Source: Escherichia coli
GTDB taxonomy: Bacteria; Pseudomonadota; Gammaproteobacteria; Enterobacterales; Enterobacteriaceae
DNA: 64,000 bases
NCBI RefSeq assembly: GCF_003790525.1
Contig: NZ_CP033635.1
Strand: one strand, 5' to 3'
This document shows positions 60,276 to 63,444 of the stretch, in pieces. Made by a program: the position numbers and the translations under genes. Positions within the stretch are counted from its first letter, which is position 1; each line of letters starts with the position of its first letter. The notes below the pieces were generated by a model. That model made no database searches, was not told where the DNA came from, and saw only the letters and a program-made list of their open reading frames with translations.

Positions 60276-60947
60276 TTAGCCTCTGATGATTTTAAGTGCC
60301 CATGCGCCACTCATAATGACCAGCAGCACCAGACACATACCAAAAGCCAGCATACAAGCCTGAGCCATATTCATAAAATGCCATGGTGGTAGCAGATACC
60401 AGCCTTCAGATTGCTGATACATTTCCACAAACCACTGTTGCGTGCTGCTCAGTGTGACGCCATCAGGAACGATTGGTGCGTCATAGCCACAATCCCCGGT
60501 AGGCTTGAACCAATTTGGTGCCCACTGTGCCAGCGGCAGGTTAAAGGGAAAAGTTGGATCGGTAGAGCAACCCTGTACGCCAAACAGTGAATCGGGATCC
60601 GGATTATGTACTGCATGGTGGATATCGTTCAGTTTGAGCGAAAACTTCAGTCCCAAAATGCTGCCGTAAAATGCCATCACGCAGCCAATTAGCTTTAGGA
60701 TGATGTTCTTTGGGTTGATCGCTGCAACCAATCCTCCAATAACCATCACAAACATGGCGTAGCGAATGTATACACATTGCTCACAGGGTGCCATGTAGAG
60801 ATAGATCTGGAAGAAAGAGTGCGCCAGGATAATTAACGCGCCCATCGCAACGGCCATTAACAACCACAACAAGCGTTGCTCCTGCCATCTGACCAGTGTG
60901 TCAACTGGTGATGTGCGAAGATCTTTCCACATTCCCTTAATACCCAT
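60276..60947 (-). CDS. dsbI: DsbB-like disulfide bond formation protein DsbI
   Basis: 223-aa membrane protein with paired Cys motifs (CEQC...), adjacent to dsbL and assT. Confidence 0.8.
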
Positions 60948-60961
60948 AGCCTGTTTCCCTG

Positions 60962-61630
60962 TTATTTGCTTGCTAACTCACGGATAAGGTCTGCCATCGC
61001 GTCGATGGATTTGATGCTCTTGGTGTAGATCAAGTACTTACCATTAACGACATAGGCTGGAACCCCCTGGATTTTGGCGACATCATAAGAGGCTTTCCAT
61101 TTTTCCAGTGTTTCTTGAACCGCTGGTTCTTTCAGTGCCGCTTCAAAATCCGCCTGACTCATACCTGCGGCATCCAGACCGGTTTTGATAAAAGCAGCCG
61201 GATCTTTACCGTCAGACCAGCGTTCTTTTTTGTCGTGATAAGCCACGTAGTAGGCAAACTTGGCTTTCTTAAACTGAGAGTTAGCATCAAATAAGGAAAT
61301 GCCTGCTGCTTTATCTTTATTGATCAAGACCGCAAAGACTTCGCTTGCTTGTTTGCCGTATTCACCTTTGGTTTCCAGATGGAACGGCGTGAAAGCAACG
61401 ATATCTTTCACTTTTTCCGATACCGGACCGGTAACCGCTTTGTCGTACTTGTAACAGAACGGGCAGGCGTAGCTGAATACCTTAATCAGCGTTTTGTCTG
61501 CATTCGGAATAGGTTTTTCCAGAACCATGTAATCCGTGCCTTCGGTAAATGCAGAAGCGGTAAATGAAACAGCCAAAGCTGCGGTAAGCAGTATGCTTTT
61601 AAATAGTGATGAGATCCCTAATTTCGACAT
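60962..61630 (-). CDS. dsbL: periplasmic thiol:disulfide oxidoreductase DsbL (DsbA paralogue)
   Basis: 222 aa, signal peptide, thioredoxin active site CPFCY. Confidence 0.8.
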
Positions 61631-61647
61631 TTTTATTCCCTTCTTAA

Positions 61648-63444
61648 TTATTTGAACATCTGTTGTGGACGGACTAACAATGCACGATAGTGAGTCTGAT
61701 TGGGTTTATCTGACAGCACGTCGATTTCCACTTTCACTTCTTTGGTTTTGTAATCGATTTCGTTCAACTTACCGACGGTTGGCTGCCCGACATCGAACAA
61801 ATGAATAGAACCACCGAAGCCAAACATGGTGTTACGGTCGGCTTGATATTCAATGATGGAGGTGATTGGGCTATAGAAATCGTAGCCACGTTCTTTACCG
61901 TATTCCCACACTTGCTGAACGGTGCCTTTCTTCTCATCAATCTTATATTCCACAAAGCGGGAATATTTCATGGTTGGTAAGGCAGGTTGTTCCAGATGAC
62001 GACCATCGCCATTATCAAAAATGGTGAGCGTTCCTTTGCTGGAAATCCAGGCGGTATGCTGGGTGTAGGTAAAGTCGAAGTCTGAGTTTTCGCACAGGCC
62101 ATTTTCGTTACAGGTAATTGGCTTACCGTTAGCATCAACCGGTTTCAGCAGCTTGCTGGCCAGCGGTTTTTCCCAACCTTTAGAGGGTGCAAGGATCCAT
62201 TTCACTTGCTTATCACGACCAATCTTCACAACACCCTGGTGACGAGAAGAGAGAATAATTGAGTCATCTTTTGCGTCATAAGCGATGGAATTAACGTGCG
62301 CCCAGTTACGGCCTGGCCCTACACCCAGAGCGTCGCCGAACGGTGTATCTGGTTCCAGTTTTGCCTGTTGTCCTGCATGGGCAAGGTCAACGTTAACGCA
62401 AACTGCACCTGCATCCAGCGCGCCGAGCAGTGCATCGCGTTTCGGATCGAGGATCTTCGTCAGATCCCATACATCTACAACGCGACCAGATTTATCGACT
62501 TCGAGGATATGGTCACGAATGGTGGTGACGTGTACGCCGTCATCGCGACGATAGTTACTCTTACCTACGCGCAACAGTACCGTGCCATTTGGCGTCTCAA
62601 TGGATTCATGAGTAGCGTCAGCAAATCCGCGCGGTAGTTTGTGATCTTCGAGCACCTGCCCCATCATGTCGAACTCGTACCAGTGCTGACCTTGTACAGC
62701 GGTAAAGGTGCCGCGTGGCGTTTCGCGGATACCCATCAGATAACCACGTTTGTTAATGTTGCGGTCACGACCATCGTAGAAGGTGTTTTGATCCAACCAC
62801 CAGCGGTATTCGCCTTCCGTATCGACGATAAAGGTGAATGGCGCGATATCAAAAGGGAGTGCGCCAGTTGCCGGACCCGCATCAAGGATACCGGCATTTT
62901 TATCTTTCTCACCATGCCAGTGGAGATCGGAACCTTGGGCGGTAAAGGTGTGGGTATTAACCAGATAGAGGCGATCTTCAAAACCCGGTGCGACTTTAAT
63001 AACTTTGGTCTGTTGTAAATCGGAGATAGAGCGGTTATCCATGTAATTATTGACGATGGCCGAAGTGTGCACCACATAATCATCTTTCATGACCTTGCCG
63101 TTTTCTTTCCACTCAACGGTCACTTTGTTAGCAAATTTCTGATAAAGACCAAAAATCGGTACACCATCGTAAGTTTTTAGTGATTCCTGACCCACGGGAT
63201 AGCTGATTTCTACGCCTTTTTCGCCCTTCCCATGGACGGTAACTCTGACGTCAGAAATAACATGGCTATCTAAGTCAACCAAAGCGGTCAGTGGTGCATT
63301 GCCGTAGGGATCGACAATGACCGCACCCAGTTGCCCGGCAGGCGGCGCTGGTTTAAAACCCGCAGCCATCACCCCCGATGCTGACAAACCCAGGGTTATC
63401 GCCACAGTTCCGGCTACGAGTGTTTTTCTATATTTATCAAACAT
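61648..63444 (-). CDS. assT: arylsulfate sulfotransferase
   Basis: 598 aa, signal peptide, beta-propeller-type sulfotransferase; first gene of assT-dsbL-dsbI operon. Confidence 0.85.
   Translation of the reverse strand: MFDKYRKTLVAGTVAITLGLSASGVMAAGFKPAPPAGQLGAVIVDPYGNAPLTALVDLDSHVISDVRVTVHGKGEKGVEISYPVGQESLKTYDGVPIFGLYQKFANKVTVEWKENGKVMKDDYVVHTSAIVNNYMDNRSISDLQQTKVIKVAPGFEDRLYLVNTHTFTAQGSDLHWHGEKDKNAGILDAGPATGALPFDIAPFTFIVDTEGEYRWWLDQNTFYDGRDRNINKRGYLMGIRETPRGTFTAVQGQHWYEFDMMGQVLEDHKLPRGFADATHESIETPNGTVLLRVGKSNYRRDDGVHVTTIRDHILEVDKSGRVVDVWDLTKILDPKRDALLGALDAGAVCVNVDLAHAGQQAKLEPDTPFGDALGVGPGRNWAHVNSIAYDAKDDSIILSSRHQGVVKIGRDKQVKWILAPSKGWEKPLASKLLKPVDANGKPITCNENGLCENSDFDFTYTQHTAWISSKGTLTIFDNGDGRHLEQPALPTMKYSRFVEYKIDEKKGTVQQVWEYGKERGYDFYSPITSIIEYQADRNTMFGFGGSIHLFDVGQPTVGKLNEIDYKTKEVKVEIDVLSDKPNQTHYRALLVRPQQMFK

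Follow-up and report, generated by a model that had tools for sequence, protein, structure and literature searches.

The assT-dsbL-dsbI operon at the ygiC/ygiD site of Escherichia coli: a known system with a patchy distribution, probably deleted in K-12

Does an operon found in one Escherichia coli strain and missing from K-12 mark a gain made by pathogens, or a loss undergone by other lineages? The question is raised by three genes located close to one end of the window, that is, the whole stretch of 64,000 nucleotides of E. coli DNA analyzed here. On the minus strand of the window, the ORF listing gives three intact reading frames, the outer coordinates of which, 60276-63444, coincide exactly with the range given in the initial annotation:

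61648..63444, minus strand: assT, periplasmic PAPS-independent aryl-sulfate sulfotransferase precursor, 598 aa
60962..61630, minus strand: dsbL, DsbA-like periplasmic dithiol oxidase, 222 aa
60276..60947, minus strand: dsbI, DsbB-like inner-membrane protein-disulfide oxidoreductase, 223 aa

The same annotation had described the region as a three-gene operon made up by a sulfotransferase and a dedicated DsbA/DsbB-like pair, and coordinates, Pfam, PDB and NCBIfam matches all bear out the gene identities and the three-gene organisation. Identity matches for the three proteins far exceed chance. The layout is that of a tricistronic unit, with a common strand, the order assT-dsbL-dsbI, short gaps (17 bp for assT/dsbL, 14 bp for dsbL/dsbI), a Shine-Dalgarno sequence ahead of each downstream gene, and a single strong terminator after dsbI; from this arrangement, the three genes are predicted to be co-transcribed in this strain. 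That the region corresponds to the known assT-dsbL-dsbI operon, with the mechanism and evolution proposed below, is held with high confidence.

AssT aligns full-length to the crystallized CFT073 enzyme (PDB 3ELQ; E=0), from which it differs at 3 of 571 residues (99.5% identity), the changes being K40R in the mature protein and two D-to-N substitutions. The protein features an N-terminal Ig-like beta-sandwich (PF17425, residues 42-127, 2.5e-28) and a C-terminal beta-propeller ASST domain (PF05935, residues 146-587, 1.1e-135). The signal peptide spans residues 1-27, an N-terminal extension ending in the hydrophobic stretch LGLSASGVMA, and the mature chain in PDB 3ELQ begins at residue 28; positions in the precursor correspond to mature numbering plus 27. 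All the catalytic and sulfuryl-coordinating residues listed in a review (PMC13426309) are present, namely His252, His356, Asn358, Arg374, His436 and Thr501 in mature numbering, and the disulfide pair Cys418/Cys424 is kept as precursor cysteines 445 and 451. From its 99.5% identity to the characterized enzyme, AssT is predicted to pass sulfuryl groups from phenolic sulfate esters to phenols.

DsbL carries a signal peptide, the Pfam DSBA domain (PF01323) and the active-site motif CPFC (C56-P-F-C59), and matches PDB 3C7M over residues 28-222 (8e-127). DsbI scores 417.7 bits on the NCBIfam DsbI equivalog NF003304 (cut-off 212), and features the Pfam DsbB domain (PF02600), a CEQC motif at residues 55-58 and a second cysteine pair, C127/C153. 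Both proteins score below the cut-offs of the housekeeping equivalogs (77 bits vs. 279 for DsbL on DsbA, 83 bits vs. 157 for DsbI on DsbB), and are therefore paralogues, not DsbA and DsbB themselves. DsbL is a thioredoxin-fold CxxC oxidase as is DsbA of K-12, and DsbI, as DsbB, a membrane re-oxidase with two cysteine pairs, but the DsbL/DsbI pair is reported to differ in its shortened hydrophobic groove, its electropositive surface and its narrow range of substrates, centred on AssT (PMC6067686). The action of the pair on AssT and the MUS plate assay are described in the literature (PMC6067686, PMC13426309).

The CFT073 system shares with the window gene order, gene sizes, His436 and its supporting residues, the Cys418-Cys424 pair and the CPFC site. 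It differs by a few amino-acid substitutions, and the background of the window strain is not that of CFT073, its nearest relatives being avian and bloodstream isolates with an arpA-/yjaA- profile. The structures of the CFT073 system are PDB 3ELQ, 3ETS, 3ETT and 3C7M. The CFT073 operon was reportedly studied by Grimshaw et al. 2008 (J Mol Biol 380:667) and by Malojcic et al. 2008 and 2014. The operon is already characterized both structurally and biochemically, and its mechanism gains nothing new from the window.

Around the three genes, the following elements were recognized:

59442..60230, plus strand: ygiD (4,5-DOPA extradiol dioxygenase; NF007914, annotation), core flank
60231..63928, no strand assigned: segment differing from K-12, 3698 bp replacing the 37-bp K-12 ygiD/ygiC intergenic palindrome
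60238..60266, minus strand: intrinsic terminator hairpin closing the operon, an inverted repeat with a 12-bp stem, a 5-nt loop and a T-rich tail
63445..63928, minus strand: AT-rich spacer from ygiC to assT, 484 bp, 28% GC
63895..63917, minus strand: hairpin directly downstream of the ygiC stop, recognized by sequence and fold
63929..64000, minus strand: 3' end of ygiC, core flank, the gene running past the end of the window

The terminator lies between the convergent dsbI and ygiD genes, in an intergenic stretch with a fold energy of -25.1 kcal/mol. The hairpin next to ygiC, likely the terminator of this gene, is part of the operon-bearing allele and is missing from K-12. The spacer presumably holds the promoter and regulatory region of the operon; a simple consensus scan found no minus-strand sigma-70 site in it, and no Rfam family was matched in operon or spacer, the sole Rfam match being the FMN riboswitch of ribB. 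Spacer sequences are 70-84% conserved within Escherichia, and cannot be aligned across genera past ~35-90 bp upstream of the assT ATG.

In a BLAST comparison of the window with the K-12 locus, homology stops at 60230, the ygiD stop, and restarts at 63929, the ygiC stop. In the MG1655-derived NZ_CP012870, 37 bp separate the ygiD stop from the ygiC stop, so that the absence of the operon from K-12, stated in the initial annotation, holds true. The segment that differs from K-12 slightly exceeds, on both sides, the three-gene range 60276-63444. The 37-bp filler folds as a palindrome with a 9-bp stem, and shows at word size 11 no homology to the insert that may hint at a deletion mechanism.

The operon was monitored in 5426 complete E. 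coli genomes. It is found in 1508 (~28%), and the K-12-type empty site in 3917; the two alleles together cover 5425 genomes, as many as carry the zupT-ygiD flank. These counts agree with the accessory status proposed beforehand. All 1508 carriers keep at least 80% of the operon length, and one IS150 insertion is the only disruption among the 40 records listed. The presence in uropathogens, also put forward earlier, is confirmed by UTI89, EC958 and the CFT073 crystal sequences.

Carriers are not restricted to ExPEC or UPEC strains. The enteropathogenic strain E2348/69 has the operon at 99.8% identity; the probiotic strain Nissle 1917 carries it as well, and so do isolates of dolphin, mouse, pig and river-water origin. 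Of the carriers, 1194 gave no arpA match (a B2/F/G-type Clermont profile) and up to 314 match arpA too, strain 190693 and GPEC859 among them; conversely, the operon is missing from 135 arpA-negative genomes. The operon tracks lineage, not pathotype, and is found mostly in arpA-negative genomes. The main text of PMC10100906 does not mention assT.

The genomes closest to the window are SC516 (chicken liver), CS5L and EC17CM2 (chicken) and GN03551 (human bloodstream). CS5L, the nearest one, lacks arpA and yjaA, as judged by these two Clermont markers only. An ExPEC-like background of the strain, which the initial annotation had seen supported by the operon, is plausible on account of these relatives, chicken-liver and blood isolates included; the operon itself, being carried by EPEC and Nissle 1917, lends it no support. 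Assignment to phylogroup B2, suggested by the 99.8% match to E2348/69, was rejected, because divergence from that strain is 2-8% elsewhere in the window and CS5L is arpA-/yjaA-. Colinearity of the whole window with CS5L was likewise rejected: the match runs only from ~29,643 onward, the left-hand island differs, and for this reason the gene calls of CS5L were not applied to the left 30 kb.

In Enterobacterales, dsbL and dsbI follow assT in 21 of 21 loci with an intact assT; the exception is a locus with a partial assT (63%, residues 1-540), in which dsbL and dsbI were not detected. Three other genomes share slot and junctions with the window, namely E. whittamii, Escherichia sp. MOD1-EC7003 and one divergent genome that bears the label E. 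coli; every one of them gives one colinear match over positions 57001-64000 or 58181-64000 of the window. In E. albertii ygiC lies upstream of the operon and the start of ygiD downstream, whereupon the contig ends; the slot is apparently the same. No scan match was found under the names E. fergusonii, E. marmotae and E. ruysiae, and ancestral presence thus calls for several losses, or for partial sampling. Identity levels of operon and flanks are alike, 91-93% vs. 90-95% in other Escherichia, 77-78% vs. 78% in Salmonella and Citrobacter, and so are dS values (0.32-0.49 for the operon, 0.35-0.49 for the flanks). The agreement holds for E. whittamii, the divergent E. coli-labelled genome, Salmonella and Citrobacter. 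The assT-dsbL portion of MOD1-EC7003 has a dS of ~1.1, far above that of its flanks (0.16-0.29), and inheritance has therefore not been purely vertical. Operon dN/dS ratios range from 0.014 to 0.09 across Escherichia and Salmonella, and the operon is under strong purifying selection.

Low GC with an AT-rich upstream region is the classical look of acquired DNA, and the operon has a GC content of 45.1%, vs. 51.2% for the window and 28% for the upstream region. Lowered GC is the one feature of an acquired islet found here, as no integrase or transposase ORFs, tRNA gene, or direct or inverted repeats were found around the 3698-bp segment. The shared site in Escherichia, a divergence like that of the flanks and the lack of mobility signatures together indicate that the K-12 state is probably a deletion. 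In Salmonella, Citrobacter and Intestinirhabdus the operon occupies the zupT/ribB interval instead of the ygiC/ygiD one, which implies at least one relocation or independent insertion.

Much of the literature implies that the operon is a virulence islet specific to uropathogens, horizontally acquired and inserted between ygiD and ygiC in ExPEC. Lack of the operon in K-12 and in 72% of complete E. coli genomes, together with a GC below that of the surroundings, speaks for such an origin, which is nonetheless improbable given a site and junctions shared with three further Escherichia genomes (and apparently with E. albertii), divergence and dS values matching those of core flanks, the lack of integrase, transposase, tRNA gene and flanking repeats, and the carriage by EPEC E2348/69, Nissle 1917 and many animal and environmental isolates. 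The acquired islet implied by the initial annotation is accordingly set aside in favour of an operon that looks ancestral in Escherichia. It is most improbable that the three genes are decaying remnants devoid of current function in this strain. The role and natural substrates of AssT are unassigned (PMC13426309), and the majority of E. coli manage without the operon, but the three ORFs are intact with all catalytic and redox residues, the low dN/dS ratios extend from Escherichia to Salmonella, and neither the lengths kept by the 1508 carriers nor the single IS150 insertion among the 40 records listed are those of a locus in decay.

A more serious contender, though not the favoured one, is that patchiness within E. 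coli results mainly from repeated gain by homologous recombination, rather than from one ancient deletion and vertical inheritance thereafter. The window differs from E2348/69 at 20-84 positions per kb left of ~60,000, and at 1-5 per kb over the operon, with a sharp breakpoint at ~59,985-60,040, inside the ygiD 3' end, where the count falls from 33 to ~1 difference per 500 bp; the near-identical operon thus sits beside a left flank that is 2-8% different. The arpA-matching carriers (up to 314), the 135 arpA-negative genomes without the operon, and a deep allelic mosaic in a cryptic-clade genome point the same way. On the other hand, only two alleles are found in 5425 genomes, as fits one deletion, the product of which is itself spread by recombination, these data do not reveal which way the E2348/69-like exchange went, and the relatives of the window, GN03551 and HCM-27C-1, are all operon-positive. 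The history that we favour, with some reservation, is that of an ancestral Escherichia locus with a fixed ygiC/ygiD site and strong purifying selection, made patchy by one clean deletion, which left the 37-bp palindrome, and by subsequent exchange through homologous recombination; the locus would have moved locally at least once without visible mobility machinery, the Salmonella/Citrobacter slot being 1.7 kb away.

In terms of descent, the operon would be an old resident of the tolC-ribB neighbourhood, inherited vertically in Escherichia at the ygiC/ygiD site, probably lost by deletion in an ancestor common to the majority of E. coli lineages, among them K-12, and later exchanged between lineages through homologous recombination in the core flanks. 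Salmonella enterica has the same three-gene order, AssT and DsbL being 86% and 88% identical in a subsp. arizonae genome. Its operon also belongs to the tolC-ribB neighbourhood, but lies in the zupT/ribB slot, and the term positional orthologue is only approximate. The S. enterica operon is said to have been described by Heras et al. 2010 (PDB 3L9U), and its regulation by LeuO and H-NS by Gallego-Hernandez et al. 2012. The upstream regulatory DNA of Salmonella cannot be aligned beyond ~35 bp before the ATG, and LeuO/H-NS control is for this reason only presumed here. A distant parallel is found in Campylobacter (astA/dsbA-like/dsbI), where a sulfotransferase homologue (40-47% identity) adjoins DsbL- and DsbI-like genes (PMC4152235); the arrangement differs, with a divergently oriented dsbI-dsbL pair located several kb off, sequence identity is much lower, and the operon is a different one.

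A single mRNA, probably started in the AT-rich spacer upstream of assT, would stop at the hairpin after dsbI. AssT would be exported via its Sec signal peptide and, once periplasmic, would require one disulfide, Cys418-Cys424, put in by DsbL; DsbI would re-oxidise DsbL, electrons presumably passing to quinones in a DsbB-like manner. The beta-propeller enzyme may then transfer sulfuryl groups from a phenolic sulfate ester to a phenol by a PAPS-free ping-pong reaction proceeding via sulfo-His436. By analogy with Salmonella Typhi, where regulation by LeuO and H-NS is described (PMC4264507), H-NS probably silences the operon, and LeuO would lift this silencing. The literature is the source for the enzyme mechanism, for the specificity of DsbL/DsbI towards AssT and for Salmonella regulation; regulation and activity of the operon in this particular strain are predictions.

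The operon is a lineage marker from which no uropathogenic or ExPEC pathotype should be read, and this corrects a common shorthand. Most E. coli probably lack it through loss, not because pathogens gained it. A second oxidase pair lets strains partly bypass DsbA, which matters for anti-virulence inhibitors of DsbA; in practical terms, DsbL/DsbI are carried by ~28% of the E. coli sequenced, and the carriers comprise enteric pathotypes as well as probiotic strains.

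Three ORFs on the minus strand at 60276-63444 make up the assT-dsbL-dsbI operon, and the gene identities given in the initial annotation agree with ORF coordinates and with Pfam, PDB and equivalog matches.

Operon features
61648..63444, minus strand: assT, 598 aa; Pfam PF05935 (1e-135) and an Ig-like N-terminal domain
60962..61630, minus strand: dsbL, 222 aa; DsbA fold, match to PDB 3C7M (8e-127)
60276..60947, minus strand: dsbI, 223 aa; passes the NCBI DsbI equivalog model
60266..60238, minus strand: terminator-like hairpin 3' of dsbI, 12-bp stem and T-rich tail

The alignment of AssT to the crystallised E. 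coli CFT073 enzyme (PDB 3ELQ; E=0) runs from end to end and shows 3 substitutions over 571 residues. DsbI scores 417.7 bits in the curated DsbI model (cut-off 212); in the DsbB model it stays far under the cut-off. The AssT residues listed as essential in a review (PMC13426309), in mature numbering His436 (the sulfo-histidine intermediate), His252, His356, Asn358, Arg374, Thr501 and the Cys418-Cys424 pair, are all present. DsbL carries CPFC, DsbI CEQC and a second cysteine pair, and none of the essential residues listed in the literature is missing from the three proteins. Both the structure and the biochemistry of this system have been described in detail before. According to published work (PMC6067686, PMC13426309), AssT, which requires a single disulfide for activity, would be exported to the periplasm and oxidised by DsbL, in turn re-oxidised by DsbI; the enzyme would move sulfuryl groups between phenolic sulfate esters and phenols in a PAPS-free, ping-pong reaction.

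Gaps of 17 and 14 bp lie between the genes, and a Shine-Dalgarno sequence precedes each gene. The spacer upstream of assT measures 484 bp and is 28% GC; a consensus scan found no minus-strand promoter in it, and neither operon nor spacer matched any Rfam family. H-NS acts as repressor and LeuO as activator of the Salmonella Typhi cluster (PMC4264507), and similar control is plausible here because the spacer is AT-rich. Alignment with Salmonella upstream DNA stops about 35 bp before the start codon, and H-NS/LeuO control of this operon is thus something we infer. Core genes surround the operon, ribB with its FMN riboswitch, yqiD, zupT and ygiD on the left, the ygiC 3' end on the right. The riboswitch, upstream of ribB (57131-57279; RF00050, 120.9 bits), is ordinary and expected.

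In a derivative of K-12 MG1655, 37 bp separate the ygiD stop from the ygiC stop. Homology between the window and K-12 ends exactly at 60230 and restarts exactly at 63929; hence 3698 bp of the window stand in place of a 37-bp palindrome. The filler (6706-6742 of the K-12 locus), lying between the convergent ygiD and ygiC, has a perfect 9-bp stem, CCGGATGGC-GAGT-GCCATCCGG, and may be REP-like. Neither end of the 3698-bp segment resembles it. Among 5426 complete E. coli genomes compared for presence or absence, 5425 have the zupT-ygiD flank, 1508 the operon (always 80% or more of the length), and 3917 an uninterrupted K-12-type empty junction. The site therefore has two alleles, the operon being found in about 28% of genomes; that it is accessory and no part of K-12, as initially annotated, holds true. 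One of 1510 operon copies is on a record classed as plasmid, and in strain ST2747 (NZ_CP007392.1) dsbL is interrupted by a naturally inserted IS150.

The operon is not a pathotype marker. Carriers include the uropathogens UTI89 and EC958, but also the enteropathogenic prototype E2348/69 (99.8% identical), the probiotic Nissle 1917, and chicken, pig, dog, mouse, dolphin and river-water isolates. The link to lineage was measured by the Clermont marker arpA, by inclusion-exclusion on an arpA fragment (4097 genomes match) and a chimeric arpA + assT query (5291 match).

Operon and arpA status, number of genomes
Operon present, arpA match: at most 314 (upper bound, some arpA matches being partial)
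Operon present, no arpA match: 1194
Operon absent, arpA match: 3783
Operon absent, no arpA match: 135

Most operon carriers are arpA-negative, as genomes of phylogroups B2, F and G typically are in the Clermont scheme, and the fit with arpA status is inexact. The initial annotation took the operon to support an ExPEC-like background. This is too strong, since the same operon resides in E2348/69, Nissle 1917 and the animal and river isolates; an extraintestinal or avian-pathogen background is plausible because of the nearest neighbours of the window. Over positions 30000-54999 the window shares 100% identity with the chicken isolates CS5L and EC17CM2, and 99.3% with the bloodstream isolates GN03551 and GN03139; the chicken liver strain SC516 is 99.99% identical over 40275-64000. 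Both GN03551 and strain HCM-27C-1 carry the operon. In CS5L iclR directly adjoins aceK, so that arpA is missing, and yjaA is not found beside the rrnE operon; for the two markers examined the strain is arpA-negative, yjaA-negative.

Strains that elsewhere share the same sequence throughout the window's core part differ in the content of a variable island (1-32316), which abuts a tRNA(CAU) gene (32241-32316, minus strand; Met/CAT by ARAGORN, tRNA-Ile in the annotation of relatives). Besides a raffinose/sucrose-type sugar cluster, the island encodes type I restriction-modification, with a DUF4268 gene as an additional member of that system.

Island features
22-1215: melibiase, sugar cluster
1255-2547: LacY-type permease, sugar cluster
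2544-3974: GH32 hydrolase, sugar cluster
5165-6091: PfkB kinase, sugar cluster
6191-7687: LamB-type porin, sugar cluster
10333-11691: group II intron reverse transcriptase
12462-14921: hsdM, restriction-modification
14928-16238: hsdS, restriction-modification
16248-17411: DUF4268 gene, restriction-modification
17426-20443: hsdR, restriction-modification
24168-27089: Ag43-like ORF
~29.6-32.1 kb: YeeU/CbtA-type toxin-antitoxin module

In a single scan of species-representative genomes, 52 loci with assT were found. dsbL and dsbI follow in 21 of 21 Enterobacterales loci with intact assT; the exception is a locus with partial assT (L049), where neither was detected. The order tolC-ygiB-ygiC-[assT-dsbL-dsbI]-ygiD-zupT of the window recurs in E. 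whittamii, Escherichia sp. MOD1-EC7003, a divergent genome labelled E. coli, and Pseudocitrobacter; the first three each give one colinear match to the window, spacer and both junctions included. In E. albertii ygiC lies upstream of the operon and the ygiD start downstream, where the contig ends early. Operon and flanks are equally diverged (identity to other Escherichia 91-93% vs. 90-95%; synonymous divergence 0.32-0.49 vs. 0.35-0.49), and dN/dS, across Escherichia and Salmonella, is 0.014-0.09. Repeats, a tRNA gene and mobility genes were looked for at the operon borders, and none was found. The shared site and junctions, the flank-like divergence and the lack of mobility signs favour an ancestral origin of the operon in Escherichia, with deletion on the branch from which most E. 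coli descend; the same data do not fit a pathogen-acquired islet. As caveats to the ancestral reading, the operon is 45% GC vs. 51% in its surroundings, and E. fergusonii, E. marmotae and E. ruysiae are not among the scan hits under those names. Two more caveats to it, both described below, are the high divergence of assT-dsbL in MOD1-EC7003 and the other slot of the operon in Salmonella, Citrobacter and Intestinirhabdus.

In Salmonella, Citrobacter and Intestinirhabdus (L008-L014, L019) the operon occupies a different slot than in Escherichia and Pseudocitrobacter, the zupT-ribB interval beyond the ygiD-zupT pair, and at least one local relocation has therefore taken place. In E. coli this interval (58037-58525) hosts only the small gene yqiD. 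Operon divergence in these genera again equals flank divergence, and no mobility genes are visible at these loci.

Differences from E2348/69 number 20-84 per kb between 40 kb and ~60.0 kb of the window, and 1-5 per kb over the operon. The right flank, with SC516 as stand-in for DNA past the window end, is ~0.5-1% divergent for ~7 kb. The left breakpoint falls in the ygiD 3' end (~59,985-60,040); hence homologous recombination in the flanking core DNA has exchanged the operon-bearing segment between lineages that are otherwise well diverged. Such recombination is probably the cause of the imperfect match between operon and arpA. The 5' two-thirds of ygiD (59442-60040) differ from E2348/69 at 33 positions per 500 bp (~6.6%), neighbouring core genes much less, and divergence falls to ~0.2% from ~60,040 onward; the pattern suggests deep ygiD allelic lineages maintained or shuffled by recombination. 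In MOD1-EC7003 (L004, 6001-8479) assT and dsbL have a dS of ~1.1 relative to the window, dsbI of 0.42, the zupT/ygiD flanks of 0.16-0.29, and by these values the locus is a deep allelic mosaic, its junction lying close to where dsbL and dsbI meet.

The comparative results amend the usual description in small ways and are no discoveries: the operon would be ancestral in Escherichia instead of acquired, is found in EPEC and probiotic strains as well, has another slot in Salmonella and Citrobacter, and is flanked by a recombination breakpoint within ygiD.
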